Shown here: one piece after another, positions 8,980-44,054 of the stretch
Numbering within the stretch: position 1 is the first letter of the stretch
How the letters are laid out: the number at the start of each line of letters is the position of its first letter
Assembly: GCA_963705595.1 (NCBI GenBank)
Contig: CAVPKD010000002.1
Coordinates: 261,962 to 325,961, forward strand
Length of the DNA stretch: 64,000 bases
DNA from: Nitrospirota bacterium
Lineage (GTDB): Bacteria; Nitrospirota; UBA9217
Direction: 5' to 3'
Notes under the pieces: generated by a model
What the model was told of the DNA's origin: nothing
The model's input: the letters and a program-made list of their open reading frames with translations, nothing else
Database searches by the model: none
Program-made: the position numbers and the translations under genes

Positions 8980-9023
8980 GGTGTAACTATGCCTAATTTT
9001 TCCTTATTCGTCAACGGGAAACT

Positions 9024-25944: not shown

Positions 25945-26150
25945 AATATCGCCTCCCCTATACCCTGATAAAATATTTTACTCATAGATCTTGACCGCAG
26001 GATTGTTATAACACAAAAAACGAATCATTAAAATGATATTTTATGTTATCGCTTTACGCACGGAACATGAGTGCGAGGACAGACCGTATTCTTTCAACAA
26101 ATGCCTTTACAACATTCCGCAGTGCGACTAAAATAATATTAAGGTGACGA

Positions 26151-26840
26151 ATGATCGAGCTGCATAATGTCAGCAGAATGTATGCACACGGGACAAAGGA
26201 AATCCAGGCTCTGCACGGCATTACGCTTAACATCAAGGCCGGAGAGTTCCTTGTGGTCATGGGGCCGAGCGGGTCAGGCAAGAGCACGCTCCTCAACATC
26301 ATCGGCGGCTTGGATCAGCCGACCTCAGGAGAGATCTTTATAGACAACCGGCCGCTCCATGGAATCTCTGATGACGAGCTCACGCTCATCAGGCGTAGGC
26401 GGGTGGGGTTCATTTTCCAGTTCTTCAATCTCCTGCCTATTCTGACGGCTGCTGAGAACGTGAGTCTTCCTCTCCTGCTTGAGGGCATCCCCTATCCAAA
26501 GGTCAAACCTAAGGCTGAGTCGCTCCTGCAAAAGGTTGGGCTGGGAGAGCGCACCGGGCACCGGCCTGAACAACTCTCCGGCGGCGAGATGCAACGCGTG
26601 GCGATCGCACGCGCGCTTATCGCCAGTCCGGCCGTGCTGCTGGCTGACGAGCCAACGGGCAATCTCGACACGCGCACGAGTGCGGAGATATTGCGCCTGC
26701 TCAAGGACCTGCACACCGAGGGCCAGACGATCGTCATGGTAACGCACGATTCGAAAGCTGCTGCTTACGGGACTAGGATCATCACGCTCCGGGACGGAAG
26801 CATATCCGAAGATACCCCTGCAGGGGGAGATGCATCATGA
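26151..26840 (+). CDS. ABC transporter ATP-binding protein (MacB/LolD-like).
   Basis: Walker [11 protein letters not shown]-loop, signature [15 protein letters not shown], and Walker [12 protein letters not shown]. Confidence 0.9.
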
Positions 26841-29428
26841 ATATCAGGAACCTCCTCCGCTTCATCAGCCTCAGGCGTTTAAAGCTGCAGAAAGTCCATA
26901 CAATCATGACGGTCACGGGGATATGCCTCGGCGTTGCGGCCATAATTTCCATCGGCATCGTGAACAAGAGCGTCTTGCGATCCTTCGAAGATTCGATTGA
27001 TCGCGTCACCGGCAGGGCCGCTCTTCAGGTCACGGGTCCAGCATCAGGGTTTCCCGAGGGCCTTATCGAACGTGTTCAGATCGTACCCGGCGTGGAATAT
27101 GCGGTCCCCGTGATCGATACGCAGGGCATTCTCTCCGACGCGAAAGAGCCTTCACTCATGATCCTCGGCGTTGATGTGCTCCAGGACTGCAACATCCGCG
27201 ACTACAAGCTCTCGGATGAGAGTGCCGATATCCCCGATCCACTTTTGTTCCTCGCTAGGCCTGACTCCATCCTCCTTACCCGCGCCCTCGCAGAACGCGA
27301 AGGGATAACACTCGACCAGAAGATCAAGGTTCAGACGGTACGCGGCATCCAGACCTTCCGCGTGCGCGGTCTGTTGAACCCCGAAGGCCCGGCCAGGACC
27401 ATGGGCGGCAACATCGCCATCATGGACCTGCCCGCGGCGCAGATGGCCTTCGGCAAGGAGGGACGCATCGACCGGATAGATGTCAGTCTCATGCACGGCG
27501 CTGATCTCGAGACCGTGCAAAGTCAAATTCAACAGGCGATCCCCGAAGGTTACAGCGTCGATACGCCTGCCGGTCGCACCAAGCAGGTCGAGATCCTCAT
27601 CTCCCACTTCCAGAAGAACATCAACCTAATCAGCTTTATCGCCGTGTTCGTCGGCATGTACCTCATTTACAACGCCGTATCAATTTCCGTAGTGCAGCGG
27701 AGAAAAGAGATAGGCATCCTGCGCGCCCTCGGCACTACCCGAAGCCAGATCATCAGGCTCTTCCTAAGTGAAACCTTCATTATCGCGATCGTGGGCTCTG
27801 CGCTCGGTGTCGGGGTAGGCATCTTTTTTGCCCGGTCGGCGATGGATACGGTGGGACAAGCCGTATCCGAACTGTACCTGAGGACATCGGTCACTGAAGT
27901 CTCCATCTCTGGTGTGAACCTCGTGTCCGGGTTTTTCACGGGCATTGTGGCGAGTCTTGCTGCTGCTTTCTTCCCGGCGCTCACAAGCACGCGAATAACG
28001 CCGATATCGGCCATCCGTTCCGTACCCTATTCCGAAGAGGGGTTTCTCTCGGGAAGAAGACTCATGGTGGTCTCTGCATTACTGGTCTTCCTCGCAGTGA
28101 CACTGCTGATCCTTTATAAAACTTCAGAATCCTCCCCATACCTGCATTCCACACCAACCATGTTTACGGCCACGATATTCCTCCTCCTCGGGATTTCCCT
28201 CGCAACGCCCTCTGTTCTTCAAGCTTTTCTTGCGTTATTCCGTCGCATGGTCGCGCCTCACGTTGGTGCAGCAGGAAGGCTGGCGGGTCTCAACCTCCAG
28301 AAGAACCTCGGACGGAACGCCGTGGCAGCCGCAGCCATATTCTTTGGCATCTCGGTCTTCGTGAGTTCAGCCGGGATCATATACAGCACGAAGAAGTCAG
28401 TGCTCGATTGGATAGACTCGTACGTGCGCGGGGACATCATCGTGACCTCCGGTCACCCCATCGCAACCACGGGCGCGCAGAACATCCCCATGCCCGTTGA
28501 CATGTGGAAAGAGATCGAAAAGGTTCCTGGAGTGCTCTCGGCAGATCCGTTCCGGAAAATATATATCGGTTACCATGGCAGGCGCATCCTGCTCATGATC
28601 CTGGACATCCCGCGCAGGATGAGGTACAGCCCGTTCATGGTTGCGAAAGGAACCCGCGAGGACATGTTGCGACTGCTTCCCGACCAGAACTATATCACCA
28701 TGAACGAGGCGCTCGCTGCGCAGGAGCATGTCAAGCCGGGAGATGCGATCATGCTCCCGACACCGGAGGGACCGGTTGAATTCAAGATAGCAGTGATCAA
28801 CGTGGATTACAGCTCGGACTCAGGCTCTATCCTCATGGATATCCATACTTATCAGCGTTACTGGAAGGAATTTCTCGCAGATTCCTTCTCGGTACGAGTG
28901 AAATCGAAGGCAAATGTTGAAGCAGTGCGCGATGAGATCGTCAAAGAGTTCGGGATTGACCGTAAGCTGTTCGTGCTACCGGCCCGTGATTTCAAAAACG
29001 AGATCCGCAAGGTCATCGACCAGGGCTTTGCCGTCAACCATGCGATCAACATCATCACTATTCTGATTGCCTGTCTTGGCATCATCGTCACCCTGCTCGC
29101 GTCCGTGCTCGAGCGCACGCGCGAGATCGGGATCCTCCGGTCCATAGGCATGCTCCGGAGCCAGGTCTCGCGGGTGGTCGTGATCGAGTCCATGCTCCTC
29201 GGCGTCATCGGCGGTGCTCTCGGCGCAGGCGCGGGGATCATCATCGGGTGGATGAGCCTTGAAGGGTTCCTCAAGGCCGACTATGGCGCGAGCATGCAAT
29301 ACCATATCAATTACGCTTCGATCGTTTGGGCCATGGCGCTCTCGACGCTGCTTGCCGCTTTGGCCGGTATTTACCCGGCCCGACGCGCGGCGAAGACTAA
29401 TATCGTGGAGGCGCTTGCGTATGAATAA
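26837..29428 (+). CDS. ABC transporter permease with two FtsX-like (MacB/LolCE-type) modules fused into one 863-aa protein.
   Basis: Intact. Two repeats, each with a large periplasmic domain followed by three or four TM helices (…IGILRALGTTRSQI… and …IGILRSIGMLRSQV…). The start overlaps the ATPase stop. Confidence 0.85.
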   Translation: MNIRNLLRFISLRRLKLQKVHTIMTVTGICLGVAAIISIGIVNKSVLRSFEDSIDRVTGRAALQVTGPASGFPEGLIERVQIVPGVEYAVPVIDTQGILSDAKEPSLMILGVDVLQDCNIRDYKLSDESADIPDPLLFLARPDSILLTRALAEREGITLDQKIKVQTVRGIQTFRVRGLLNPEGPARTMGGNIAIMDLPAAQMAFGKEGRIDRIDVSLMHGADLETVQSQIQQAIPEGYSVDTPAGRTKQVEILISHFQKNINLISFIAVFVGMYLIYNAVSISVVQRRKEIGILRALGTTRSQIIRLFLSETFIIAIVGSALGVGVGIFFARSAMDTVGQAVSELYLRTSVTEVSISGVNLVSGFFTGIVASLAAAFFPALTSTRITPISAIRSVPYSEEGFLSGRRLMVVSALLVFLAVTLLILYKTSESSPYLHSTPTMFTATIFLLLGISLATPSVLQAFLALFRRMVAPHVGAAGRLAGLNLQKNLGRNAVAAAAIFFGISVFVSSAGIIYSTKKSVLDWIDSYVRGDIIVTSGHPIATTGAQNIPMPVDMWKEIEKVPGVLSADPFRKIYIGYHGRRILLMILDIPRRMRYSPFMVAKGTREDMLRLLPDQNYITMNEALAAQEHVKPGDAIMLPTPEGPVEFKIAVINVDYSSDSGSILMDIHTYQRYWKEFLADSFSVRVKSKANVEAVRDEIVKEFGIDRKLFVLPARDFKNEIRKVIDQGFAVNHAINIITILIACLGIIVTLLASVLERTREIGILRSIGMLRSQVSRVVVIESMLLGVIGGALGAGAGIIIGWMSLEGFLKADYGASMQYHINYASIVWAMALSTLLAALAGIYPARRAAKTNIVEALAYE

Positions 29429-30338
29429 CCATGACTTAACAATGAGAAAAAGCACATCACGTTACCGCGAAGGCGCGAGGAGCACCAAGAGAATCTTAAA
29501 TTTATTTCTTAATGCTTTTCAAAATCCTCAACATCCTTTCCGCGCTAGCGGATCTGTTTTTGTGTCCGGGCTTGGATTCTTGATTTCTGTTATTTTCTCG
29601 TCATTAGTATTTCTTCCCACAGCCCATGCCATGAGCGGACGTGAAGTATATGAGAAAGTGCATGAGGTGCGTTCGAATGCGCTCGATCGGAAGACCGAAG
29701 CGATTATGACTCTTTTTGACAAGGGCGGCGGCAAGCGGACGAGAACCCTCACGGAATACAGCAAGAAAGCAGACCCCGAGGCGTATAAGGTTCTCGTTGT
29801 GTTCAAGAGCCCCCCGGACCTCAAAAACGTCGGGTTCCTGATCCATGCTCATACCTTCGCCGGACGCGATCTCTGGGCCTATTTCCCTGAATACAAACGC
29901 GTCAGGCGCATTCCTACAAGCTCGCAGGATGATTCCTTCTTCGGGTCGGATTTTTCGTATGACGACTTCGGCGGCCCGCCGAACCTCGACGACTATAAGT
30001 TCAGCATCTTGAAGGAAGATGTTGTCGGTGACAAGCCCTGCTACGTGGTCGAGGTCACGCCAAAGATCCATCGCAAATACACACGCTACGTTGCCTGGGT
30101 TGCAAAAGACCTCTGGATTCATCTCAAGATCGATTACTATCAGGAAAAAGAGCTGTACCGTACCGGAGCGTTCACGGATATCCGCATCATCGACGGCATC
30201 CCTACACCGTTCAGGCTCGAAATGGAAAACAAAAAGACCAGCCACCGGACAGAACTTACGGTCGAGAGCATCCTGTATCATACCCATTTTTCAGACGACC
30301 TCTTCTCTCAACGGTCGCTTGAGCGTGCGGGAAGATAG
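29421..30338 (+). CDS. Periplasmic LolA-like (outer-membrane lipoprotein-sorting-type) protein with a signal peptide.
   Basis: The start overlaps the permease stop (ATGAATAA). Signal sequence ...FLISVIFSSLVFLPTAHA. The body resembles the LolA/DUF1329-like fold (DLWAYFPEYKRVRRI...). Its position after an FtsX permease supports the call. Confidence 0.55.
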   Translation: MNNHDLTMRKSTSRYREGARSTKRILNLFLNAFQNPQHPFRASGSVFVSGLGFLISVIFSSLVFLPTAHAMSGREVYEKVHEVRSNALDRKTEAIMTLFDKGGGKRTRTLTEYSKKADPEAYKVLVVFKSPPDLKNVGFLIHAHTFAGRDLWAYFPEYKRVRRIPTSSQDDSFFGSDFSYDDFGGPPNLDDYKFSILKEDVVGDKPCYVVEVTPKIHRKYTRYVAWVAKDLWIHLKIDYYQEKELYRTGAFTDIRIIDGIPTPFRLEMENKKTSHRTELTVESILYHTHFSDDLFSQRSLERAGR

Positions 30339-30364
30339 AAAGCATCAACCACAGATTTGCCCGA

Positions 30365-31810
30365 ATGAACACGGACAATAAATTTAGAAAAGATCCCTTC
30401 AATGCAATCTCCCTTCACCCCCCTTTCCCGATGGAGGGTTGGGGGGATTTGATCCCCATACTCATCGTATGTATGACGCTTTCTATCGTCTCCCCTGCCT
30501 TCGCCGACGAAACCCTCTCTGTCTCCGGCAGGTTGGATCTGCGCGGGGTGTATGCCCTTGATGACGACAGCGTGAAGGAAGACCCCGGCCTTGTCGGCAG
30601 GATCAAGATCGACACGGCGACATCAGCGTGGCGGTTCCACACATGGCTCGAGGGCGGGTGGGACGGCACGGTCAAGAGGCCGCCGAGGGACCCATCGCTC
30701 TTCAAAAACTACGATGAGGTCTATCAGAGCAACACGCCCTACCTGGAGTTCAAAGAGATCTATGTAGCTTACTCATCGAATGGTCTCGATTGGCGAGCAG
30801 GTATCCAGCGCTTTGCCTGGGGAAGGCTTGACGAGTATCCGCCGAACGACCTCTTGAATCCCTGGGACTATACCCAGTTCCTCAGAAAACCGCTCGAAGA
30901 CCGGAAGATCGGCGTCCCCTCTGTCTCTGCGACGTTGAGTAAGGGAGACTGGACCCATGAAGTAGTCTGGGTCCCGGTCTTCGTTCCCTACCGGCTCCCC
31001 ATGCCCGACGAGCGCTGGGCGGGGATATCGACGGCTGCAACAATATCCCGAACGTTCCCGAACGCCGAAATCACTCCCCAAGAGCCTGACCTGCCTGACC
31101 GTACGTTCTTGCAGGGAAACTTTGGGCTGCGTGTGAAGCGCACCGGAGATATCGAATGGGCGTTAAACCTGTTTCACGGTTATGACCCCCGGCCTCAGTT
31201 CAAAACAACAACACTCTCGATCACGCCGCAGGGCGGAAATATCATCATTGATCCGGGTTATGTGCCTTCCTTCCACCGGATTACTTCAATCGGTTTCGAC
31301 GCTGCAGCAGTACGGGGAGACTTGAGCATCCGGGCCGAGACAGCCTATGCCATTGACCGCTACCTCGATATCCGCCGCGAACTCTGGGGATATCCAACCG
31401 TACCCTCGCCGGGTGTGTTCCCCCTTAATCCTATCGAGCAGCAGCACAATACTTTGGATTATGGCATGGGAGTGGATTACCGGCTGTTCGAGGACGGGCT
31501 TTTGACCGTGCAGGCGCAGCAGACGATCATCTTCGGAAATGTTGACTCGCTATATGAAAGAAAAGTGGAAACCATCATCTGGGCGAACGTCAGGGTCGGT
31601 TTTATGAACCAGAAGATCGAAACGAACCTCAACGTCGCCTATAATCCCGAGCACGGAGATCACATGACAAAGGCGAATGCGTTCTATGTCTTTTCGGATT
31701 TCTGGAAGTCGGGACTCACCGCGGTCACTTTCAACGGACCGCCGCAGTCGATCTTCGGCAGGTACTCAAGGAACGATCAATTGGAGGCGGAAGTCATGTA
31801 TTCATGGTAG
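30365..31810 (+). CDS. Outer-membrane beta-barrel protein (DUF1302-like). The start may be the internal Met at 30431.
   Basis: Signal peptide ...LIVCMTLSIVSPAFA, many alternating amphipathic beta-strand segments, and a C-terminal aromatic residue (…EVMYSW). Confidence 0.5.
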   Translation: MNTDNKFRKDPFNAISLHPPFPMEGWGDLIPILIVCMTLSIVSPAFADETLSVSGRLDLRGVYALDDDSVKEDPGLVGRIKIDTATSAWRFHTWLEGGWDGTVKRPPRDPSLFKNYDEVYQSNTPYLEFKEIYVAYSSNGLDWRAGIQRFAWGRLDEYPPNDLLNPWDYTQFLRKPLEDRKIGVPSVSATLSKGDWTHEVVWVPVFVPYRLPMPDERWAGISTAATISRTFPNAEITPQEPDLPDRTFLQGNFGLRVKRTGDIEWALNLFHGYDPRPQFKTTTLSITPQGGNIIIDPGYVPSFHRITSIGFDAAAVRGDLSIRAETAYAIDRYLDIRRELWGYPTVPSPGVFPLNPIEQQHNTLDYGMGVDYRLFEDGLLTVQAQQTIIFGNVDSLYERKVETIIWANVRVGFMNQKIETNLNVAYNPEHGDHMTKANAFYVFSDFWKSGLTAVTFNGPPQSIFGRYSRNDQLEAEVMYSW

Positions 31811-33211
31811 CACCACAACCCGGTTCCTGCCACGCTCTTTCGCTTTGTAGAGCGCGGTATCCGCACGGGAAAAAAGCCTGTCAAAGCTCGTATCGTCATC
31901 TCTTTGCATCGTCACCCCAGCGCTCAAGGTGACCGTTGCCTCCCTTACTCCGTCGCCGATGGTCTCACGATGAATGATCTTTCTGATCCTCTCCGCAACC
32001 ACGACCGTATCTTCCAGATACGATTCCGGACAGATGATGAGGAACTCCTCTCCGCCTACCCTCCCGATAAGGTCGTGCTTCCGGAGGGCCTCTTTCATCC
32101 GCGCGGATATGACCCGGAGAACGACATCGCCGAAGAGATGGCCATGAGCATCGTTGATCGTCTTGAAGTGGTCGATGTCGAGCATGATGAGACTGAGCGG
32201 CCGGCCGGTGCGCTTCGAGCGCTGGAATTCCTCTTCGAGTCGTTCCACGATGTACCGGCGGTTCCGGAGGCCCGTCAGCTCGTCGGTGATCGCCACATGC
32301 TTCAGGTGCGTCTGCGTCTCGTTCAGCCGCTTGATGAGCTTCACGAGCTCATCATCCGTTTTCTTTTCCATGATATCCCGGTGGGTCTCTACCATGGCGA
32401 GGATCTGCCCATGACCGTTCCTGACGGGAGAGGCGGTGATCTCGATCTGATGCTCGTCTCCCTGTACGTTGTAATGGGTGTGGATCACCTTGGCTACTTG
32501 CTCGCCACGCTCAAATATCAGAGAGTGGGGGCAGACTATGTGAGGACTGTCGCAGGGCGCATGCCTCCGGTGCGCAACCTCGAAGCATTTTCGGCCAATC
32601 ATATCAGACTTTTCCAGACCGAGTGAAGCGGTGGCCGCCGAGTTGGCATCAAGGATCGTGTAATCCCTGCCAATGACAATGACACCGTCCCCCATCCCCT
32701 CCATGATGTGCTCCAGGAACAGCCTTGCCTGTTCATTCTCCTGGACCGTGCTCTTGAGCTTGCTGACCAGCCGCTCGTTATAGACCTTCAAAAAGACCGG
32801 CTCATCCAGGGGGACAGGGGAGGTACCAGACGGACGGCTTTGTCCCCCTTCCGCAAGCACCTCTTTCACGGTACGTATGATTTCAGAATCCTCCGCAGGC
32901 TTGACCAGATATCTCGACACGCCGATCTTGCGTGCAAGCTCCTGGTCTTTCTTATCGAGATAACTACCGGTATAGAATACGACCGGGACATCCTTCAGGG
33001 CATCGTCTCCTCTCATCTTTCTCAGGAACTGGAATCCATCCAAGCCCGGCATGAGGACATCAGTGATCACGAGTGACGGATGCTCCGCTTTCGCTTTTTC
33101 GAGTCCATCCTCACCGTCTCCCGCCACCACAACATCGTACCCTTCGGAGACGAGGATGTTCCGAAGAATGGTGCGCATGATATCACTGTCATCAATGACG
33201 AGTATCTTCAT
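31802..33211 (-). CDS. Response-regulator receiver / PAS / GGDEF diguanylate cyclase.
   Basis: Intact 469 aa. REC (DDSDIMR...ITDVLMPGLDG), a PAS domain, and GGDEF with an intact GGEEF. Confidence 0.85.
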   Translation of the reverse strand: MKILVIDDSDIMRTILRNILVSEGYDVVVAGDGEDGLEKAKAEHPSLVITDVLMPGLDGFQFLRKMRGDDALKDVPVVFYTGSYLDKKDQELARKIGVSRYLVKPAEDSEIIRTVKEVLAEGGQSRPSGTSPVPLDEPVFLKVYNERLVSKLKSTVQENEQARLFLEHIMEGMGDGVIVIGRDYTILDANSAATASLGLEKSDMIGRKCFEVAHRRHAPCDSPHIVCPHSLIFERGEQVAKVIHTHYNVQGDEHQIEITASPVRNGHGQILAMVETHRDIMEKKTDDELVKLIKRLNETQTHLKHVAITDELTGLRNRRYIVERLEEEFQRSKRTGRPLSLIMLDIDHFKTINDAHGHLFGDVVLRVISARMKEALRKHDLIGRVGGEEFLIICPESYLEDTVVVAERIRKIIHRETIGDGVREATVTLSAGVTMQRDDDTSFDRLFSRADTALYKAKERGRNRVVVLP

Positions 33212-34377
33212 TTGACCTGGTACCGTATGAGCCTTAAGAAATGGTCGACAAGATCGGGATTAAAGGTGGTCCCCTTCCCGCTGGTCAGGACTTCAACGAT
33301 CTTCTCGATCGGGATGTCGCCCTGGTATGAACGCTTGCTGCGCATGGCATCGAACACGTCGGCGACGCTGATAAGCTGGCTTGCGATGTTCGGTCTCCAT
33401 CCGCCCTTGATCGAAGGGTATCCACTCCCGTCATATTTCAGATGATGTTCCAGAGCGGAAAGCACGGCGAGTTTGGGGATCCCCTCGATCCCCATGAGGT
33501 ACCGAGCGCCCTTCACCGTGTGGGTCTCGATGATCTTACGTTCATCCTGGGAAAGCTTGCCTGGCTTGCTCAGTATCTCTTCAGGTATAAAGATCTTTCC
33601 GACATCATGGAGCAGGGAAGCGACCCCGATCTGGTGCAGATGCTCACCAGTAAAGCCCAGTGTTTCCGCCTGGCTCATGGTCAGGATGCAAACATTCGTG
33701 ACGTGGGTAAACGTATATTCATGGGCGGACTTGAGCGATGCGAGGAGACTCAACGGGTTGATCTCCTCACGGAACGCCTGGATGAATGCCTTGACCATTT
33801 CGTCCACGCCGTGGACGTCGATCTTCTTGTGTTTCTTGATGCGGAGGTAGAGATCCTTCAGCTCATCAAGCTCTGTCTCCGTGAGCGAGAGCAGTTCCTG
33901 GATGACCTCCTGCGAAACTCCCTCGAGGGAGCCGCCCCCCTCCCCCTCTGCATGGTCATCATCTTTTTTAACCCTGAGTTCCACTTTGCCGAGTTTTATA
34001 AAAGAAGTGGAGCGGACCGATGCGGAATCGGGCGAAGCAAGGTCCTGTATAAGCACCTGAAGCTCGGTCCTCGGCAACCCAGCGACGAATGTCAATCGTT
34101 CAACCGCCTTTTTCTGCAGGATACGGGTGAAATTGCTTACATACGAAGTAGCCCCCGTTTCAGCAATCTGCCTGTTGTCCGCCACGAGGTCATTGCCAAT
34201 AAGAAAAATCGTCAGTTCCGGCTTGAGCTGAAGCATATCGGCAAGCACGGCATGCGCTTTTTCGACATATTGCGCCACCCGCGGATGGGTCGGTGAATAC
34301 AAGCTCGTGTTCGTGATCGCAGCGGTGAGCTGGGAGATCACCCGCGAGAGCCCTTCGTGGAAATCATATTCGGCCAT
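33208..34377 (-). CDS. HD-GYP c-di-GMP phosphodiesterase with an N-terminal DUF3391-like domain.
   Basis: HDVGKIFIPE...HHLKYDGSGYPS (HD and GYP motifs). The stop overlaps the GGDEF gene start. Confidence 0.85.
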   Translation of the reverse strand: MAEYDFHEGLSRVISQLTAAITNTSLYSPTHPRVAQYVEKAHAVLADMLQLKPELTIFLIGNDLVADNRQIAETGATSYVSNFTRILQKKAVERLTFVAGLPRTELQVLIQDLASPDSASVRSTSFIKLGKVELRVKKDDDHAEGEGGGSLEGVSQEVIQELLSLTETELDELKDLYLRIKKHKKIDVHGVDEMVKAFIQAFREEINPLSLLASLKSAHEYTFTHVTNVCILTMSQAETLGFTGEHLHQIGVASLLHDVGKIFIPEEILSKPGKLSQDERKIIETHTVKGARYLMGIEGIPKLAVLSALEHHLKYDGSGYPSIKGGWRPNIASQLISVADVFDAMRSKRSYQGDIPIEKIVEVLTSGKGTTFNPDLVDHFLRLIRYQVK

Positions 34378-34436
34378 ATATCGTCCTGACGGTATTCAAC
34401 CCACGCAATTTTGCACGTATGATCTTCAACCGACCG

Positions 34437-36746
34437 TCACGTCCTCTCCATCAGTTTCCTGCACGCCATCCTTATCTTTTCGCTGTTCAGACGTTCTCCG
34501 ATCTTTAGAAGATTGCCGATGCTCTCCCGCGGATATCTTCCAAGAGATTCGAAAAGAAGTTCCTTCATGCGCATTAGCCCCTGAGGATAGAGCGACCATG
34601 ACGCACGCGCTAGCTTCTCCAAGTCGGGAATTGCATGGACATCACCGATCTCGCCAAGCGCCGAGATGATCTCTTCATTTACGGTATAGTCCGATTCGAA
34701 GAGGATGACTCGTTTAAGACGGGAGAGAACATCTTCGGTAACCTCGTGTACGCGGTATTGTGCTGCCAAGGCGACGGCCTGTGAAGCGACATCTGGGTCC
34801 TTTGAATGAATCGTGTCACGCAGCAGTTTCACCGATTCGGGATCCTTGAAATGCAGGAGCGTGCCCAATGCCTCCATTCTGACCTTCAAATCCTGATGCT
34901 TGACCAACTGCTTGACATGGGGAATTGATGTCTGATTGCCCGCCCGCCGGATGAGGATGAGGAGATTTCTAACGTAGTACGGCCTCGAGTCACGCAGTCT
35001 CTTGTATGCCTCGCGCACGGCTCTGTCACCAAAGGCACAGAGCAGATTGAATACTAGCCGCCTCCCCCCCACCGATGCGTCCCTACTGAATATATCTAGG
35101 AGGCCGGGCACGGTATCTGCACCCATGGCCTGAATCAAACCTGCCGCCTCCTGCCCCTTGTCCTTCATCCATTTGTCGAACGCCTTCAAGACCTTAAGTC
35201 TGAATTCGTTGTCAGCGAATATTTTCCGCGATTCCTCGGCAAGGGTACGGATGCCCTTGACAGGTTTTTCCGTTGTATGGCGCCGGAGCGTTTCCGAGAT
35301 ATCCCAGAGGAGCTCGAAATTGCCGGTTTCGAGAAACCCGGGCATAATCGTAATAAGCTTCTGGGCAAATTCTTTATAGTCCTCCTCTTCAATATTTTCC
35401 TCCATGAAGGCAAGGAGTGCTCGGCCTATCTGGAAATCGAGGCGGGCATCCTCCAGTGACTTCTTATGATCCTCCAGGGGGAAATGGCTCCTCGCAACGG
35501 CAGTGCCGGCTGACATCTGTCTGAGCATTGCATCATAGTCTTTAGATACATAATCTTCGTACTTTTCACGGTCAAAGAGCCTCTGCATGTGTTCGGGAAG
35601 AATGATCGGCGCATGCAGGCTGTCCTCCGCCTTCTTCGATCCGTCGCTCTGCGCCCGGGCGGTCGCCGCGCTCTGTGCCTGCGACTGCGCTTTGCTCAGC
35701 TTGCCCACAAGCCCCGCTAAGGTCGGCGAGATTTCTCTCCCCTCGCTGCTCGCTTGTGCGATCATCTCGATGACCATATCGTCGGTAAAGCCACCGATGA
35801 TCTCCTCTGCGGCAGACGGCGAGCTCGACGCTATGCGCTGAACCGCGATGGACAGGAACTGTTTCCTGAGCTCGGGGTGGAGGTCCTTTAAGAGAACATT
35901 GAGGCTCGCAAGGGTCTGGGATTGTTCATGCGTAAGTTGTTTTTTCTCAGCGGCCCCGCGGATGTGCGTTGTGATGATGTGGTCATAGCTCTCCATCGCC
36001 ACATTCGCATCCAGCTTGCGTTCGTTGAGAAGGCGCGCGAGCTCCGCAGGGTCTATCTGTCCTACGTCCTTCAGGGAGACACCCTGCCCTTGAGGTCCGG
36101 CAAGCTTGCCTTCCGTGAGGTGAGACACAAAGTCCTGCCACACGCCCGCGCTCGTCTTGTCTCCGGCTCCTCCCTTACCGCCCTTCTTCTCTCCTCTTTC
36201 TGCCTTTGTCTGCTGATGAAAGATCTCCTGCTCCTCGGTAAGATGGAAACTTCCGTAGTCGATGGGTTGGATCCTGATATGCGGGATGGAAAGATTGGAC
36301 ATGACTTTTTCAATGCCACCCAAAGCCCTGATATCGTCCGGTTTGGTCGTGAGAACGCGATGGAACCGCACCATCTCGTCCTTGTCCAGACCATGGATAA
36401 AGGTGACCGCTGCTATGCCTTGCTGGTGCATGGAAAGCGCGAAGTCACGGAACACCGGGTTCTTTTGATCAAGATAGTCCTGGCCGACAAGCAGGGTGTC
36501 CTTTGCCACACCGAGCGTCATCTCCGGCCGGATCTCGAACAATCGCCGCAGGATCTCATACGCACGGTCTATGCTTCGGGTTATCTGGATATGACCGGGA
36601 GGGTAAATGCCGACATTCTTGCGTGAGATGTTGAGTTCGATGACGGCTTCCGACAGGAGCTTGGTATCGATAGGAAGCTCCCGCTCGGCAGGCGCTTGGG
36701 GCGCGATATGAGGACCTTGTTTGTCTTTGTCCTTGCCTTCTGCCAT
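34437..36746 (-). CDS. Large HEAT/ARM-repeat protein. Its N-terminal roughly 150 aa are paralogous to the N-domain of the adjacent HD-GYP protein.
   Basis: Intact about 770 aa from MAEGKDKDKQ. C-terminal HEAT-like repeats (…LLILIRRAGNQTSIPHVKQLVKHQDLKVRMEALGTLLHFKDPESVKLL…). The N-domain aligns with the HD-GYP N-domain: ISRKNVGIYPPGHIQI / ITNTSLYSPTHPRVAQ, and RPEMTLGVAKDTLLV / KPELTIFLIGNDLVA. Confidence 0.6.
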   Translation of the reverse strand: MAEGKDKDKQGPHIAPQAPAERELPIDTKLLSEAVIELNISRKNVGIYPPGHIQITRSIDRAYEILRRLFEIRPEMTLGVAKDTLLVGQDYLDQKNPVFRDFALSMHQQGIAAVTFIHGLDKDEMVRFHRVLTTKPDDIRALGGIEKVMSNLSIPHIRIQPIDYGSFHLTEEQEIFHQQTKAERGEKKGGKGGAGDKTSAGVWQDFVSHLTEGKLAGPQGQGVSLKDVGQIDPAELARLLNERKLDANVAMESYDHIITTHIRGAAEKKQLTHEQSQTLASLNVLLKDLHPELRKQFLSIAVQRIASSSPSAAEEIIGGFTDDMVIEMIAQASSEGREISPTLAGLVGKLSKAQSQAQSAATARAQSDGSKKAEDSLHAPIILPEHMQRLFDREKYEDYVSKDYDAMLRQMSAGTAVARSHFPLEDHKKSLEDARLDFQIGRALLAFMEENIEEEDYKEFAQKLITIMPGFLETGNFELLWDISETLRRHTTEKPVKGIRTLAEESRKIFADNEFRLKVLKAFDKWMKDKGQEAAGLIQAMGADTVPGLLDIFSRDASVGGRRLVFNLLCAFGDRAVREAYKRLRDSRPYYVRNLLILIRRAGNQTSIPHVKQLVKHQDLKVRMEALGTLLHFKDPESVKLLRDTIHSKDPDVASQAVALAAQYRVHEVTEDVLSRLKRVILFESDYTVNEEIISALGEIGDVHAIPDLEKLARASWSLYPQGLMRMKELLFESLGRYPRESIGNLLKIGERLNSEKIRMACRKLMERT

Positions 36747-36900
36747 AATCGTATTATATACAATTTTCTTGAATTTTCCACGATAATAGTGCAGATAAAA
36801 TCTATTAATAAACCGGATTTCGTTAAAGATAATACGGTTCTTCCGGTAGCAAATTAAGGCACCGTTCACCGGGTACGTTCCATGGTTGATGTCCGGAATA

Positions 36901-38016: not shown

Positions 38017-38927
38017 CTGGATACACAGCTGAAATTCATAGACGTCCTGCGGCAACGCCACGGGAGGCACTTCAGGCAACAGGACCTCGGCAAATTTGAA
38101 TACTCGTACAAGGCCGAGATCACCAGCATAGTACGGCTCACAAAAATGGAAAGCCTCTACCGGATCCGGATCATCGATCATGAGGAACGAAAACATTTCT
38201 CCTTCCAGCCAGGCCAGTTCGTCATGCTTGAGGTTCCCGGGCATCGGTGAGGCCCCCTTCTCTATCGCTTCCTCCCCAAGCAGCCGCGATGACATCGAAC
38301 TCTGCATCAGGAAGGTCGGGAACCTCACCTCGTTCCTGGCAAGAGCGACCCGCGGAATGCGCGTCGGTATCCGCGGACCCTTCGGGACCAGCTTCCCCAT
38401 GGAGACCATGCACGGCCAGAACATCCTTCTGATCGCGGGAGGACTAGGACTGGCGCCCTTGCGGTCTCCGATCGCCTATGTGCAGGAGAACCGGAGCACG
38501 TTCCATAATGTGGACATCATCTACGGAGCAAAGTCGGCCTCTCAGCTTCTCTTTACGTTCCAGTACGACATGTGGCGAAGGGACGATATCGGCTTGAGCA
38601 TCATCGTAGAAAGGTCCGATCCTTCATGGAAAGGACCGGTGGGAATGATAACCGACGTCCTCGACCCCCTGCTCTCCGAGCGAGGAGAGTCTTTTGCCAG
38701 GAATACCTTTGCAATCGTGTGCGGCCCGCCGGTCATGTTCAAGTTCATCTGCAACCATGCTGACCGAGATCGGCATTCCCATGCAGAAGATGTTCGTCTC
38801 CCTAGAGCGCCGCATGCACTGCGGCATGGGCAAGTGCTGCCGCTGCAACGTAGGCTCGACTTATACCTGCCTCTCGGGGCCCGTATTCGACTACTGGACC
38901 GTGATGAACCTGAAAGAGGCAATCTGA
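38017..38927 (+). CDS. hydG: Sulfhydrogenase gamma subunit (FAD/NAD(P)-binding, 2Fe-2S). Indels near 38240 and 38760. The start codon is unclear.
   Basis: …[27 protein letters not shown]…[27 protein letters not shown]…[14 protein letters not shown]…GIRGPFG…[15 protein letters not shown]… and C-terminal …[17 protein letters not shown]. Confidence 0.75.
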
Positions 38928-39742
38928 TGGATGACAAGCATACAGAGACCCGGACCTATCTCGGCGTGCCACTTGCCCGTCCGAGCGTCGCGTTCTTTGA
39001 GCTCTCGTCGTGCGAAGGCTGCCAGCTTCAGATCGTGAACAACGAGTCCACGCTCATGGACTTCCTCTCCCTTGTCAACGTGGTGAACTTCCGGGAGGCC
39101 ATGACCGAAAAGACCGATCACTATGACATCGCCTTCGTGGAAGGGAGCGTTACCCGCGCCGACGAGATCGAGCGGCTCAGATCGATCCGGCAGAACGCCA
39201 ATGTCCTCGTGGCCTTCGGCTCCTGCGCGTGTTTTGGCGGCGTGAACCAGCTGAAGAACCGCTTCAAGGATCCCGACTGGGTACGAAGGCAGGTCTACGG
39301 GAACCACCCGATCGATACCAATGAGACCGCCAGGCCGCTCGAGGATTTTGTCAAAGTCGATCTCAGGATCTACGGTTGTCCGGTGAAAAAGGAGGAGGTC
39401 GAGAAGATCGTCACTCATATCGCTGTCGGGAGAACCATCGTACAGCCGAAGTACCCTGTCTGCATGGAATGCAAGGCGAACGAAAATATCTGCCTCTTCG
39501 ATGTCGGAGAGCCCTGCCTGGGGCCGGTCACCCGCGGAGGTTGTGATTCCTGGTGCCCGAACAACCGGTTCGGCTGTTGGGGCTGCCGGGGGCCGGCCGA
39601 TGACGCCAATGTAGGTCAGATGCAGACCATCATGAAAGAGCATGGTTTTTCCGAAGAGACCATACTTGACCGGTTTGAATGTTTCGGCGGGTTCGCGACA
39701 TACGCGGAAGAACTGCGGAAGAACCTCGAAGCAAAAGAATAA
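38927..39742 (+). CDS. hydD: Sulfhydrogenase delta (small) subunit.
   Basis: Intact 271 aa. FELSSCEGCQLQIVN…GSCACFGG…GCP… (NuoB/HycG-like small-subunit Cys ligands). Confidence 0.85.
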   Translation: MDDKHTETRTYLGVPLARPSVAFFELSSCEGCQLQIVNNESTLMDFLSLVNVVNFREAMTEKTDHYDIAFVEGSVTRADEIERLRSIRQNANVLVAFGSCACFGGVNQLKNRFKDPDWVRRQVYGNHPIDTNETARPLEDFVKVDLRIYGCPVKKEEVEKIVTHIAVGRTIVQPKYPVCMECKANENICLFDVGEPCLGPVTRGGCDSWCPNNRFGCWGCRGPADDANVGQMQTIMKEHGFSEETILDRFECFGGFATYAEELRKNLEAKE

Positions 39743-39855
39743 AACATATCTCTCGCAGAGACGCAGAGGACGCTAAGAAAAAAGATCTTAGATTAAAAAA
39801 TCTAGGTTCAGAGCATCACGAGCTTTGCGTCTTTGCGCGAAACCAAAGAGAAAAC

Positions 39856-41130
39856 ATGAAATCAACACGTACCATCGATATACATCATATAACAAGAGTT
39901 GAAGGCCACGGAAACATCAAGATAACTATACAGGACGGACAACTCACGGAGGCCCGGTGGGAAGTGGTTGAAACCCCGCGCTTCTTCGAGGCGATGCTCG
40001 TTGGGAAAAAATGGGAGAACGCACCCTGGATCAGCGGCAGGATATGCGGTATTTGCTCCATCGGGCATACTCTCGCGAGCATTCGCGCGGTAGAGAACGC
40101 CTTCGGTATCGTTCCGAGCGAACAGACCCGGAAACTGCGACTGCTCCTCAAGCACATGGAAACCCTCCAGAGCCATATCCTCCATCTGTATTTTCTCTCG
40201 GCTCCCGACTTTCTGAACACCGGGAGCATCTTTCCCCTCATCGAGTCGCATCCGGACGTGGTCCTGCGGGCCGCGAGGATCAAACAGCTCGCAAACGACC
40301 TCTGCGACTGTGTTGGCGGACGCCGTATACATCCAACGCGGACGGTCGTCGGCGGTTTCACCATGTTGCCCGATAAAAAGGAACTGGTGAAGTTCAAGAT
40401 CCGATTGCAGGAAGTCATGAACGATCTCTGGAAGACGGCGGAACTGTTCCGGACATTCGCCATCCCCGATTTTGCGAGGGAGACCGAGTTCGTTTCACTC
40501 AAGGGAGACGGAAGCTATCCGTTCATCGGCGGCGACCTCGTCTCGACCGACGGCGTGACGAGAAAAGAGCATGATTACAAACTCATGACAAACGAGTATC
40601 TGGTGGAACAATCGACCTCAAAGTGGAGCCGCCTCTCCCGGGAATCGTTCGCCGTGGGCGCCCTTGCCCGCATCAACAATAATTTTTATTTTCTGCATCC
40701 CGCGGCAAAAGAGATTTTACTGAGTTATGGGCTCAGACCCGTATGCCACAACCCTTATATGAACAATATCGCCCAGCTGGTGGAATGCGTGCATGTTGTC
40801 GCCGAGTCCATGGGTTTCATCGACGAGCTTCTTGGGATGGTCTGGAAAGAACCCCGCCAGGCGGCGATTCCCCGAAGCGGCATCGGAGTAGGCGCCGTGG
40901 AAGTGCCACGGGGCATTCTGTACCACAGTTACGGGTTCGACGGGAACGGCAAGATCATCCAATGCGACTGCGTGATCCCCACGAGCCAGAACCACGCCAA
41001 TATCCAGCACGACCTCTGGACGCTTGCGGCGAAGTGCGCATCACAGGGGAAACCGGACCGTGAAATCGAACTCCTTGCCCAGATGCTGGTCCGGTCATAC
41101 GACCCGTGCATCTCCTGCTCGGTCCACTGA
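39856..41130 (+). CDS. hydA: NiFe-hydrogenase large (alpha) subunit, group 3b.
   Basis: Intact 424 aa. N-terminal Ni-binding RICGICSIGH and C-terminal DPCISCSVH, followed immediately by the stop. Confidence 0.9.
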   Translation: MKSTRTIDIHHITRVEGHGNIKITIQDGQLTEARWEVVETPRFFEAMLVGKKWENAPWISGRICGICSIGHTLASIRAVENAFGIVPSEQTRKLRLLLKHMETLQSHILHLYFLSAPDFLNTGSIFPLIESHPDVVLRAARIKQLANDLCDCVGGRRIHPTRTVVGGFTMLPDKKELVKFKIRLQEVMNDLWKTAELFRTFAIPDFARETEFVSLKGDGSYPFIGGDLVSTDGVTRKEHDYKLMTNEYLVEQSTSKWSRLSRESFAVGALARINNNFYFLHPAAKEILLSYGLRPVCHNPYMNNIAQLVECVHVVAESMGFIDELLGMVWKEPRQAAIPRSGIGVGAVEVPRGILYHSYGFDGNGKIIQCDCVIPTSQNHANIQHDLWTLAAKCASQGKPDREIELLAQMLVRSYDPCISCSVH

Positions 41131-41517
41131 TCGGAGCTCGGTGAATTACGGCTATGGTTCTTCGGACCATTTGCGGTTCAATCGGAGGATCAACAGGAGC
41201 AGGAGGAAGATAAGCGGTATCCACACGAAGGGATTGTATGGCTGACTCTCTCCGGTCATGGCAGTTACGCACCGGGACACAGTAACCGTTTGCTCGGTCT
41301 CAGGAGCTTCACTCGTGCTAGGTATCGCCGTTCATGCCGGCACACTAGCAAGCGCTTGTGGTTTATGCTGCTTCGTTTTCCTGGCGATCCAGATCGGCTC
41401 CCCGTCCTTGTCGTGGAGATGATACTCATTATACTAAAGATCCCATTCTTCACACCGTTTCAAATATTTGTGTCCTCCACATCCGTCTGTCTTTCCCGTG
41501 TCAGAAAAGACGGTCGC

Positions 41518-41943
41518 GGGGCAAATCAGAATAACAAGAATGACAGGCAGTTTTTTGATGCGGCGCGTGCATCGCACTGCAGATATACTATCAATCCGAT
41601 GGATGCTCATCAACAGCCCGTCTTTTTTCTTGACAACACCGGTTCGTGATGTTACATTATTTTTCGACTCACAATATATTATATAGGTTGTGCATTGCGG
41701 GGCTGTAGCTCAGCTGGGAGAGCACAAGGCGGGGCAAATCAGAATAACAAGAATGACAGGCAGTTTTTTGATGCGGCGCGTGCATCGCACTGCAGATATA
41801 CTATCAATCCGATGGATGCTCATCAACAGCCCGTCTTTTTTCTTGACAACACCGGTTCGTGATGTTACATTATTTTTCGACTCACAATATATTATATAGG
41901 TTGTGCATTGCGGGGCTGTAGCTCAGCTGGGAGAGCACAAGGC
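41518..41943 (+). repeat. Perfect tandem direct repeat, 2 x 213 bp. Each unit is the tRNA-Ala upstream/promoter region (about 181 bp) plus tRNA positions 1-32. The second unit is part of the functional tRNA.
   Basis: Unit A 41518..41730 and unit B 41731..41943 are identical by eye. The called ORFs 41468..41686 and 41690..41899 give identical peptides from the two units. Confidence 0.85.
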
Positions 41944-41987
41944 TGGCAGTCTTGGGGTCAGGGGTTCGATCCCCCTCAGCTCCACCA
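41912..41987 (+). tRNA. tRNA-Ala (anticodon GGC).
   Basis: GGGGCTGTAGCTCAGCTGGGAGAGCACAAGGCTGGCAGTCTTGGGGTCAGGGGTTCGATCCCCCTCAGCTCCACCA. It has a 7-bp acceptor stem with G3:U70, D-loop AGCTGGGA, anticodon loop CTGGCAG, T-loop TTCGATC and an encoded CCA. Confidence 0.9.
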
Positions 41988-41996
41988 AAATATTGA

Positions 41997-42031
41997 GGGG
42001 TTAGCTTAAAACAGCTAACCCTTCTTCATTT
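41997..42031 (+). terminator. Intrinsic terminator of tRNA-Ala (GGGGTTAGC-ttaaaaca-GCTAACCC + U-rich tract).
   Basis: A perfect 8-9-bp GC stem followed by ttcttcattt. Homologous hairpins follow repeat copies 2 and 3. Confidence 0.6.
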
Positions 42032-42310
42032 GAATGTGCTAAATTTGTGCTAATTCTGTCCAAGACCTCCACACCACTCCGCAAACTGTCAGGGCAATGA
42101 TGCGAATACCACGGCGTCATTTCGAGCGCAGAGATAAACCCTAGCTGAGATTCCTCGCTAATTACTACACAGGCGTTTCCAGTTGATCGCTGATCGACGA
42201 CAGCCGTCTGCCACTATGCCCGTTCTCTGTTGACAGTCATGAACCTTTCGGATACACTTTTGCCAGACAGTTCAGACACTGTGCCTCGCACATGCCATGG
42301 AGGATGCACC

Positions 42311-42508
42311 ATGAACGGGAAAATCATCGGTATCGTTATACTCGCTGCGGGAATCGTATTGCTAATCTTGGGATTCAATGAAATTGGGACATTCGGCTCC
42401 CGTGCGGGCAGGATGCTCGGTGCGGGCGTATCGAATAAGGTTCTGTTCTACTTCAGTGCAGGGGCCATATGCACAATCTTCGGCTTCATACAGATGCGGA
42501 AAAAATAA
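42311..42508 (+). CDS. Small two-TM membrane protein (DUF3185-like).
   Basis: MNGKIIGIVILAAGIVLLILGFNEIGTFGSRAGRMLGAGVSNKVLFYFSAGAICTIFGFIQMRKK. Confidence 0.4.
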   Translation: MNGKIIGIVILAAGIVLLILGFNEIGTFGSRAGRMLGAGVSNKVLFYFSAGAICTIFGFIQMRKK

Positions 42509-42876
42509 CCCTTGCCTCAGATGCGAACATTTATCGATGATGACTGTCAAGAATTGTAAAGTAGACAGTCATTAACAAACAGCTAGAGGGATTACATCCC
42601 CTCCTCTAGGCAATTCATACCGAACAAAGTCAACCGGTTATGATTGAAATAACTCTTTAATAAAACGGAGCTGCCGAGCGATAAGTACGACTTTAGGAAA
42701 TAGCTAAGATAGAAATGGATGGACTATTAGGTTTTGTATTGTGCAGTTCGTGTGTCAGTAGAGATCGGGAAAGGACGATAAAGGACGGAATCCCCTTCCC
42801 TGCAATAATCCGATAACCTCAAGATAAAGCAAGAAAAGGAAGAGGCGGGGAATGTATGCGGGGTAATCGGTTGCAT

Positions 42877-42921
42877 CTGGCAGTCTTGGGGTCAGGGGTT
42901 CGATCCCCCTCAGCTCCACCA
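42877..42921 (+). repeat. tRNA-Ala 3'-half copy 2 (positions 32-76, 45/45 identical). An att-type direct repeat.
   Basis: ctggcagtcttggggtcaggggttcgatccccctcagctccacca. Confidence 0.85.
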
Positions 42922-42931
42922 AGAATTCAAA

Positions 42932-42962
42932 GGGTTAGTCTAAATGACTAGCCCTTTTTTGT
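42932..42962 (+). terminator. Terminator hairpin homologous to the tRNA-Ala terminator (GGGTTAGTC-taaat-GACTAGCCC + T6).
   Basis: Read directly. It carries stem substitutions relative to 41997..42031. Confidence 0.5.
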
Positions 42963-43052
42963 TGGAATGTGATAAGGGTGTGATAATTCTATCCAGGATC
43001 TCGACATCCATCCGCAAATTGTCAGGACCATGATGCGAATACCGTATATATT

Positions 43053-43292
43053 TTATTTCGCGAAATTGATTTTCTTTGACAGAATGTTCAACCTTGAAGA
43101 TAAACTCGATTGTTTCCTTCTTTCCGGTCCTAAATATGAACCGACTGATCCCCTTATCGGATCTCTCTCAATATCTGCCCACTCTCCAGAACGATAAAAC
43201 TTTTTAATTTTCTTTGACGAAATGAGTTCATTGAGGAGCGATGGTCTAACCATATCATACTTATCGTTCTGATACATGACCTTGAGCAGCAT
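43053..43292 (-). CDS. Hypothetical small protein (79 aa) in island 2.
   Basis: ORF MLLKVMYQNDKYDMVRPSLLNELISSKKIKKFYRSGEWADIERDPIRG…. The composition is protein-like, but I recognise no family. Low support. Confidence 0.25.
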   Translation of the reverse strand: MLLKVMYQNDKYDMVRPSLLNELISSKKIKKFYRSGEWADIERDPIRGSVGSYLGPERRKQSSLSSRLNILSKKINFAK

Positions 43293-44010: not shown

Positions 44011-44054
44011 CTGGCAGCCTTAGGGTCAGGGTTCGATTCCCATTAGCTCCACCA
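44011..44054 (+). repeat. tRNA-Ala 3'-half copy 3, degenerate (about 37/45 identical).
   Basis: ctggcagccttagggtcagggttcgattcccattagctccacca. Confidence 0.75.

Follow-up and report, generated by a model that had tools for sequence, protein, structure and literature searches.

ABC (ATP-binding cassette) transporters of type VII, including MacB, LolCDE, FtsEX and YbbAP, use ATP to move periplasmic domains and do not carry substrates across the inner membrane (PMC12646458, PMC5985334). A predicted transporter of this class is encoded by the first two genes of a four-gene operon located at positions 26151-31810 (+ strand) of a 64,000-nucleotide stretch (hereafter the window) of contig CAVPKD010000002.1, from a Nitrospirota bacterium of lineage UBA9217 (assembly GCA_963705595.1). 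The two downstream genes encode a LolA-like periplasmic protein, referred to here as the carrier, and an outer-membrane beta-barrel. The operon is a real, conserved system composed of recognizable parts, and its predicted role, by analogy with described systems and with a probability that we place at about 0.6, is that of an outward trafficking route for a hydrophobic or amphiphilic small molecule or lipid.

The closest analogue, and the sole one that has been probed experimentally, is the AmeABCD system of Castellaniella defragrans, which comprises a DUF1302 outer-membrane protein, a DUF1329 protein of the LolA superfamily, a BNR protein and an HAE3-type resistance-nodulation-division (RND) transporter, and whose deletion lowered monoterpene tolerance and reduced Nile Red efflux (PMC6394551). 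These four families are cofit in transposon sequencing with random barcodes (RB-TnSeq) of several Proteobacteria (10.1101/072470), the cofit AmeABCD-type clusters being those of Shewanella, Pseudomonas and Kangiella. For YbbP, electron cryomicroscopy revealed a pseudo-symmetric fusion in a 2:1 ATPase:permease complex, for which a role in removing hydrophobic compounds from the inner membrane is proposed (PMC12646458). In Porphyromonas gingivalis and Prevotella, an MMPL gene adjoins a LolA_like gene in operons whose published transcriptomes record a 13- to >100-fold induction under iron or heme limitation (PMC10434189, PMC10470040). The searchable literature yielded no account of an operon combining an ABC transporter, a PF17131 protein and a DUF1302-like barrel; DUF1302 is not mentioned there together with 'LolA-like', and TP0789 appears only in proteome lists.

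The inner-membrane ABC transporter

The ATPase (26151..26840, 229 aa) matches Pfam ABC_tran (E = 8e-36) and carries a Walker A motif (GPSGSGKS) at residue 38, the signature motif (LSGGE) at 142, a Walker B motif (VLLADE) at 162 and the H-loop histidine at 199. Its top NCBIfam matches are DarD, MacB, LolD and FtsE (E = 1e-67 to 1e-70), together with YbbA, all of which remain under the equivalog cut-offs, and it shares 46% identity with E. coli YbbA. The protein is thus a predicted member of the MacB/LolD/FtsE/YbbA clade with intact catalytic motifs.

The permease (26837..29428, 863 aa) matches FtsX in two stretches (E = 1.4e-40) and MacB_PCD likewise in two (E = 2e-28). Hydropathy predicts 10 transmembrane (TM) helices, with TM2-4 and TM8-10 falling in the FtsX modules, two periplasmic domains of ~220 residues each between TM1 and TM2 (~48-267) and between TM7 and TM8 (~516-738), and a two-helix linker (TM5-6) that joins the halves. 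The nearest relatives by sequence in the PDB are LolF, MacB, YtrF and LolC/E (E = 1e-15 to 1e-8), and the NCBIfam Lol models are matched far below their cut-offs (TIGR02212 (lolCE), 147.7 bits vs 362; LolC, 79.6 vs 473; LolE, 47 vs 439). This composition identifies a predicted pseudo-dimeric fused type VII ABC permease of the MacB/FtsX fold. An assignment as a YbbP orthologue was rejected: the YbbP model NF041854, which has a cut-off of 999 bits, gave 25.4, E. coli YbbP aligned in BLASTP only over patches of 49-89 residues (E = 0.003), and the permease's PDB matches at E <= 1e-3 included no YbbP chain. A preliminary description of this locus had placed the pair in the mechanotransmission-type class of MacB and LolCDE and had recognized two FtsX modules in the 863-aa permease; both observations are borne out by the paired FtsX and MacB_PCD stretches and by the affiliation of the ATPase.

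The LolA-like carrier and the outer-membrane barrel

The third gene (29421..30338) encodes a 305-aa precursor matching PF17131 (named LolA_like, and TP_0789-like in newer Pfam releases) with E = 1.2e-52 and 178.6 bits against a cut-off of 30, over profile positions 4-184 of 184. It also matches DUF1329 (39.6 bits), and its Pfam matches at E <= 0.01 include no LolA model. Over its whole mature length the protein aligns with PDB entries 9TP6 (E = 5.6e-32), 4Z48 (E = 7.6e-27) and 3BK5 (E = 2e-25), and 3BUU is matched as well, so that the LolA-like fold suggested earlier for this protein is well supported. The closest solved homologue is P. gingivalis LolA3 (9TP6, 30% identity). That protein is devoid of the LolA Arg (beta2-beta3 loop) and LolB Leu features and does not bind LolB, and the solved LolA-superfamily structures carry a hydrophobic groove (PMC13103446). 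Deletion of a Flavobacterium johnsoniae protein that is also named LolA3 had no phenotype in the lipoprotein pathway, gliding or the type IX secretion system (T9SS) (PMC11885536). The carrier has a signal peptide of the signal peptidase I (SPase-I) type that ends in LPTAHA, with the mature protein beginning MSGREVYEKV, and contains no lipobox cysteine. The AxA/MSGRE junction is common to ~50 carrier orthologues, none of which has a lipobox at the cleavage site, indicating that the carrier is a soluble periplasmic protein and not a membrane-anchored lipoprotein.

The fourth gene (30365..31810) encodes a 481-aa precursor with a signal peptide that ends in SIVSPAFA, a mature protein of ~434 aa that begins DETL, and a C-terminus that reads VMYSW. 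The protein has no sequence match in the PDB, and its own match to DUF1302 (PF06980) is sub-threshold (17.8 bits vs 23.2). Among 63 aligned relatives, however, 52 match PF06980 at E <= 1e-3 (best 2.6e-14), and a homologue with 30% identity in a Bacteriovoracaceae metagenome-assembled genome (MAG; locus L082) reaches 31.9 bits. Because a shallow alignment, in which all relatives were >=64% identical, gave a poor AlphaFold2 model (pLDDT 62), it was replaced by a diverse alignment of the 63 relatives, which gave pLDDT 89.6 and pTM 0.83. The resulting model has ~20 strand segments (18 or 20 strands), linked by turns of 2-4 residues at one end of the barrel and by long loops at the opposite end, an asymmetry that in the model follows the classical outer-membrane-protein pattern. 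In Foldseek searches, the best PDB TM-scores were to the 18-strand barrels AlgE (0.50-0.56), ChiP (0.52-0.56) and OccAB1 (0.46-0.52), and the published fold neighbors of DUF1302 are the same structures with the same scores (PMC13499233). Strands 5 and 6 are connected by a long loop (~residues 149-183) that contains the most conserved motifs, FAWGRLDE and NPWDYTQF, and might fold into the barrel lumen by analogy with porin L3. On the basis of the model, the fourth protein is best described as a divergent DUF1302 relative forming an outer-membrane barrel of the AlgE/OprD size class. This agrees with the earlier proposals that the protein is a beta-barrel and not soluble and that it is DUF1302-like and related to alginate exporters, with the reservation that its own DUF1302 score is sub-threshold.

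Operon organization

All four open reading frames (ORFs) lie on the + strand, and their coordinates were recovered unchanged from the preliminary description. The ATPase stop and the permease start share a 4-nt overlap with a common ATGA. The first three genes had been described as overlapping at both junctions, with an ATGA at the second; the overlap at 26837 is correct, whereas the permease and carrier genes share not an ATGA but an 8-nt overlap, ATGAATAA, with the carrier ATG at 29421 and the permease TAA at 29426-29428. The same 8-nt offset between permease stop and carrier start recurs in many orthologous loci, including those of other phyla, which supports both the assigned start codon of the carrier and translational coupling. 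A 26-nt spacer separates the carrier and barrel genes. The barrel start codon is uncertain (30365, 30431 or 30449), and the signal peptide is kept with each choice.

A consensus scan located a candidate promoter-like site (TTTACA-17-TAAAAT, 26106..26134, + strand, 10/12 matches) in the AT-rich, 206-bp intergenic region that separates the ATPase gene from the divergently oriented FMN reductase gene. The site is very near the ATPase start codon, and the leader would be very short.

The four genes are intact and their neighbors indel-ridden, as noted previously: no indel was found across 25984-36834 relative to the closest related locus (L051), whereas pyrC and pyrB contain seven 1-nt insertions. 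These insertions (22374, 22925, 23061, 23497, 23926, 24425 and 24441; genes on the - strand) are private to the window and missing from both independent orthologous MAG contigs (L051 and L066). They lie outside long homopolymers, break pyrC up into two ORFs and shorten the reading frame of pyrB, and could be local assembly or sequencing errors or reflect real pseudogenization.

Conservation across phyla

Conservation was assessed in 75 closely related loci from GTDB species representatives, whose taxon labels are those assigned by the MAG submitters. In 51 of these 75 the order of all four genes is kept, the genes being contiguous in 38 and accompanied by an insertion, nearly always in the carrier/barrel spacer, in 13; another 13 loci are interrupted by a contig end and otherwise consistent, and the remaining 11 are incomplete, several of them because a large insertion moves genes past the 8-kb flank. 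The operon is carried by Nitrospirota and by Desulfobacterota (Geobacterales, Syntrophales/Smithella, Desulfobulbales, Desulfarculales, Desulfosudis and Syntrophobacterales), and also occurs in single MAGs labeled Desantisbacteria and Spirochaetota. Synteny in other genomes, on which the preliminary description had left its proposal to depend, thus extends over several phyla. The closest locus (L051) shares 89-97% protein identity with the window, and identities between phyla amount to 47-65% for the barrel, 59-79% for the carrier and 68-80% for the ATPase. Such high values for envelope proteins indicate strong constraint, operon transfer, or both, and the operon is ancient or mobile. In a library clustered at 50% identity, the clade forms essentially one full-length cluster, and the surrounding superfamily comprises 388 clusters at E <= 1e-10, a number that rises to 1855 at E <= 1e-3. 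The antisense ORF clusters c6, c15 and c23 were discarded as artifacts of greedy ORF picking that overlap real genes.

In the window, the ~10 kb to each side of the operon contain no HlyD/membrane-fusion protein (MFP) or TolC-type gene, and none is conserved among 80 related loci, in agreement with the earlier statement that MacA and TolC partners are missing.

The carrier/barrel spacer is an insertion hot spot in many Nitrospirota MAGs (L004, L009, L010, L016, L022, L023, L044 and L074), with inserts of 0.9-3.6 kb or more. The inserted genes encode histidine kinases, a lactonase/InlB-repeat protein, Ig-like, TonB-receptor-like, DUF2950 and metallo-beta-lactamase proteins and unknowns, and this heterogeneity led us to reject them as additional parts of the system; a protein of 520-556 aa with no Pfam match is common to L023 and L074. 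In another Nitrospirota MAG (L027, 3-6941), two full-length and one partial tandem permease copies precede a single carrier gene and a single barrel gene. Two further loci (L013 and L014, 8001-9350) encode a barrel homologue with 67-68% identity whose 8-kb upstream flank contains neither an ABC nor a LolA-like gene, suggesting that the barrel can be detached from the other three genes or that the cluster has been rearranged there.

Reuse of the carrier and barrel with other transporters

Barrel homologues of ~30% identity still directly follow a PF17131 gene in loci that have no ABC genes. In the Bacteriovoracaceae MAG L082, the LolA_like and barrel pair is divergent from an MMPL/sterol-sensing (HAE3) RND gene, and in a Vicinamibacterales-like locus (L087) LolA_like, MMPL and barrel genes form one operon in that order, with a metallo-beta-lactamase gene next to the barrel gene. 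Among the carrier and barrel loci for which context is available, L086 is the exception, with no transporter called nearby. The occurrence of the pair with either ABC or RND engines indicates a swappable, reused module of the periplasm and outer membrane. More generally, a LolA_like (PF17131/DUF1329) protein and a DUF1302-class barrel may constitute a self-contained outer module that moves lipids or other hydrophobes out of the periplasm, either into the outer membrane or across it, and that is plugged into at least two unrelated engines, the fused type VII ABC transporter and the HAE3 RND pump. ABC-powered export across the envelope would then have, in addition to MFP/TolC tunnels and the LolA/LolB shuttle, a third architecture, which the window operon would exemplify and which is widespread in anaerobic Nitrospirota and Desulfobacterota. 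We offer this generalization tentatively, at slightly less than even odds.

At L082, where this gene set spans 622-9479, the MMPL gene also adjoins genes for an HMG-CoA reductase that is fused with an EcKL/APH-type kinase and for a B12-binding radical S-adenosylmethionine (SAM) protein, and these neighbors hint at an isoprenoid-lipid cargo for that subclade.

Regulatory and enzymatic genes beside the operon differ among its relatives. A PadR-family gene (~180 aa, PadR and Vir_act_alpha_C domains) precedes the ATPase gene directly, on the same strand, at 14 loci outside Nitrospirota (e.g., L018, 3364-3906), and TetR regulators are found at the Bacteroidota relatives. Repressors of the PadR and TetR families commonly respond to small ligands of a hydrophobic or phenolic nature and act on genes for efflux or detoxification. 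A secretory-lipase-like alpha/beta hydrolase is encoded directly 3' of the barrel gene in Smithella (L046, 9406-10671; L050; L054) and nearby in L065, while an alpha/beta hydrolase gene lies between the carrier and barrel genes in L048 (7125-7907) and L053 (7136-7882). These Syntrophales hydrolases recall, by analogy, the hydrolase partner of YbbAP-TesA. The frequent presence of a PadR regulator or of lipase-like hydrolases beside the operon favors a lipid-like or hydrophobic cargo over canonical lipoprotein sorting.

Comparison with described systems

Like AmeABCD, the window operon places a DUF1302-type barrel and a LolA-superfamily protein beside an inner-membrane exporter, with no MFP or TolC; both systems are tied to hydrophobic substrates, and the distant relatives of the window pair are RND-linked. 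However, AmeABCD is energized by an HAE3 RND transporter through the proton-motive force, whereas the window operon has a type VII ABC transporter that would use ATP, and no HAE3 RND (COG1033, MMPL-like) or BNR/Ycf48-like gene was found in the window or in the 51 four-gene loci. The window proteins are also smaller, with a short PF17131 carrier (~240 aa mature) in place of a ~450-aa DUF1329 protein and a borderline DUF1302 barrel (~430 aa mature) in place of one of ~600 aa.

The engine itself shares with YbbAP-TesA a separate ATPase and a fused permease that has 10 TM helices and two MacB-like periplasmic domains in the same positions (TM1-2 and TM7-8). The partners differ, being a LolA-like carrier and an outer-membrane barrel instead of the TesA hydrolase; hydrolase genes accompany some Syntrophales versions only, and these are of an alpha/beta type unrelated to TesA. 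With LolCDE-LolA-LolB, the operon shares a type VII ABC extractor, a soluble grooved LolA-superfamily protein and a relay that would run from the inner membrane over a carrier to the outer membrane. Nevertheless, the permease is fused and not a LolC/LolE heterodimer, and it scores under the equivalog cut-offs; the carrier belongs to PF17131 (LolA3-like), a family whose solved member does not pair with LolB; and the outer-membrane partner is a 481-aa barrel with an SPase-I signal peptide, not a lipoprotein such as LolB. With MacAB-TolC, the operon has in common an inner-membrane component of the same ABC class and with the same mechanotransmission fold. The window operon lacks both a MacA-type MFP and a TolC-type trimeric duct, its ATPase is not fused to the permease, and its outer-membrane partner is a monomer-type barrel of the 18-strand class.

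The Bacteroidota operons likewise associate a LolA-like protein with an inner-membrane transporter and a repressor of the small-molecule type, but they encode MMPL and separate ABC ATPases and respond to iron or heme limitation. The Borrelia BBJ23-29 cluster also combines a MacB-like ABC transporter, a LolA-like protein and an outer-membrane barrel, although its barrel is of the Omp85 type and its permease homodimeric. Overall, the operon belongs to the type VII ABC class and to PF17131 and falls outside YbbAP, LolCDE-LolAB, MacAB-TolC and AmeABCD proper. By analogy, it might be viewed as a hybrid that joins a YbbAP-like engine architecture to Lol-like relay logic and to periplasmic and outer-membrane hardware of the AmeABCD kind.

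Proposed mechanism and alternative explanations

For the proposed outward route, we infer the stoichiometry, mechanotransmission, handover direction and order, and cargo nature as follows. Two ATPase copies would assemble on one 10-TM pseudo-dimeric permease, and ATP binding and hydrolysis would be relayed through the membrane to the two periplasmic domains, which would pick up cargo either in the periplasm or in the outer leaflet of the inner membrane. The cargo would then pass to the hydrophobic groove of the soluble LolA-like protein, which would deliver it to, or dock on, the ~18-strand DUF1302-like barrel, and the barrel would insert it into the outer membrane or let it across. Extraction is proposed to be outward because type VII ABC transporters work by periplasmic-domain movement. 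The carrier may be a diffusible shuttle in the manner of LolA, or it may reside as a subunit on the barrel's periplasmic face. A published AlphaFold-Multimer prediction of the DUF1302-DUF1329 complex (ipTM 0.84; PMC13499233) favors at least a direct carrier-barrel complex. As to cargo, an endogenous envelope lipid and an exogenous or metabolic lipophilic toxicant appear roughly equally probable.

Several points weigh against this outward route. The window has no PadR gene and no hydrolase gene in or adjoining the operon, and the neighboring genes (FMN reductase, pyrR/B/C, GGDEF, HD and HEAT genes) are uninformative about the substrate. The carrier could be permanently bound to the barrel as a subunit and not a shuttle, in the manner of LptE with LptD, in which case the bridging of the periplasm would be unexplained. 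In addition, the window barrel falls below the DUF1302 threshold. Lastly, the RND-linked relatives have pleiotropic phenotypes that have also been read as esterase or uptake functions (10.1101/2020.07.04.188060).

The preliminary description had proposed a Lol-like or lipid/hydrophobic-cargo pathway that is not a drug pump. The hydrophobic-cargo part of that proposal is supported, while the exclusion of a drug pump is not established: the PadR genes of the 14 loci, the TetR genes of the Bacteroidota relatives and the contribution of AmeABCD to monoterpene tolerance leave efflux of hydrophobic toxicants fully possible. The term Lol-like is apt for the type VII ABC transporter and the LolA-superfamily carrier, but it should not be extended to lipoprotein sorting, given that LolA3 does not bind LolB (PMC13103446) and that deletion of its namesake has no phenotype (PMC11885536).

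A second, specialized Lol pathway would have the ABC transporter extract a subset of triacylated lipoproteins, the LolA-like protein chaperone them and the barrel replace LolB as an insertase or surface exporter. The same proposal has been made for the Borrelia BBJ23-29 cluster, with its MacB-like ABC transporter, LolA-like protein and Omp85 barrel (PMC13078400), and it is consistent with the best NCBIfam and PDB matches of the permease (LolC/E and LolF), with the membership of the carrier in the LolA superfamily and with the lack of LolB in many phyla. We consider it unlikely here, because the permease scores far under the Lol equivalog cut-offs (lolCE, 147.7 vs 362 bits), the carrier belongs to PF17131 and not to the LolA family, with a solved LolA3 that does not bind LolB (PMC13103446), and deletion of Flavobacterium LolA3 left gliding and the T9SS unaffected (PMC11885536). 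Moreover, the carrier and barrel pair is also coupled to HAE3 RND pumps, which are not known as lipoprotein movers, and PadR/TetR control and adjoining lipases better match small molecules. The reverse direction, in which the barrel would admit fatty esters, hydrocarbons, sterol-like lipids or other hydrophobic nutrients, the LolA-like protein would carry them inward and the ABC transporter would insert them into the inner membrane or drive the process, is quite unlikely. All characterized type VII ABC transporters (MacB, LolCDE, FtsEX and YbbAP) act outward or in the periplasm and none imports (PMC12646458, PMC5985334), the HAE3 RND partners are likewise exporters, and deletion of AmeABCD cut tolerance and dye efflux, not uptake (PMC6394551). 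These observations have to be set against the requirement of Pseudomonas putida for DUF1302/DUF1329 genes during growth on Tween 20 and butyl stearate (10.1101/2020.07.04.188060), and against the presence of such genes in catabolic islands for hydrocarbons and terpenes (10.1101/2020.07.04.188060, PMC6394551, PMC13101534). Nutrient uptake would also suit the lipase-like genes found beside the operon in Smithella, whose members are known for syntrophy on alkanes and fatty acids.

It is also conceivable, although very improbable, that the ABC transporter and the carrier/barrel pair are merely independent neighbors, or that the ABC transporter serves as a mechanotransmitter regulating a periplasmic enzyme, as in FtsEX-EnvC and YbbAP-TesA, with no transport at the outer membrane. 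The activation of periplasmic hydrolases by type VII ABC transporters (PMC12646458) and the hydrolase genes in or beside the operon at some Syntrophales loci agree with regulation, and the solitary barrels of L013 and L014, like the insertions that often part the barrel from the other three genes in Nitrospirota MAGs, agree with independence. However, gene order and the start/stop overlaps are kept across phyla, the identities of the four proteins vary in step across loci, and neither the window nor most loci encode a hydrolase. In addition, wherever context is available, the carrier and barrel are always accompanied by some inner-membrane transporter, except in L086.

Outward trafficking by this operon would bear on a problem that is partly solved and largely unexplored outside Proteobacteria, namely how diderm bacteria move hydrophobes such as phospholipids, hopanoids, pigments and lipophilic toxins across the aqueous periplasm. 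The four genes offer a candidate pathway that is compact, highly conserved and present in environmentally dominant anaerobes (Nitrospirota, Geobacterales and Syntrophales), and each part of which can be related to a structurally understood relative. Because the carrier and barrel are shared with RND pumps, a single idea could join several DUF1302/DUF1329 phenotypes, including monoterpene tolerance, growth on fatty esters, nanopods and the Porphyromonas operons responding to heme limitation. The system involves no new principle, and its importance stays potential as long as it lacks a substrate.

Genomic surroundings

Downstream of the operon (31802-36869, - strand) lie a response-regulator-PAS-GGDEF gene, an HD/HD_5 (HD-GYP-like) gene and a gene for an 810-aa HEAT-repeat protein, the first of which is convergent with the barrel gene and overlaps its 3' end by 9 nt. 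Together, the HD and HEAT genes adjoin the operon in >20 Nitrospirota loci and not in other phyla. A functional link between the operon and the FMN reductase, pyr, GGDEF, HD or HEAT genes is unsupported, because these neighbors are conserved within Nitrospirota only.

Further downstream (38180-41130, + strand), a 520-aa ORF with NAD-binding oxidoreductase and NiFe-hydrogenase small-subunit-like (Oxidored_q6) domains overlaps by ~60 nt the start of a 483-aa NiFeSe_Hases large-subunit-like ORF, and the two could form a soluble hydrogenase module. A perfect tandem duplication of 213 bp (41516-41987; 2.0 copies, 100%) reaches the 5' end of tRNA-Ala(GGC) (41912-41987), the only tRNA gene in the window. 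It is followed by ~12 kb (42000-54000) of low G+C content (0.43-0.49 vs 0.53-0.60 elsewhere) with few long ORFs, and the region from 41516 to 54000 looks like an integration site or the remnant of a mobile element.

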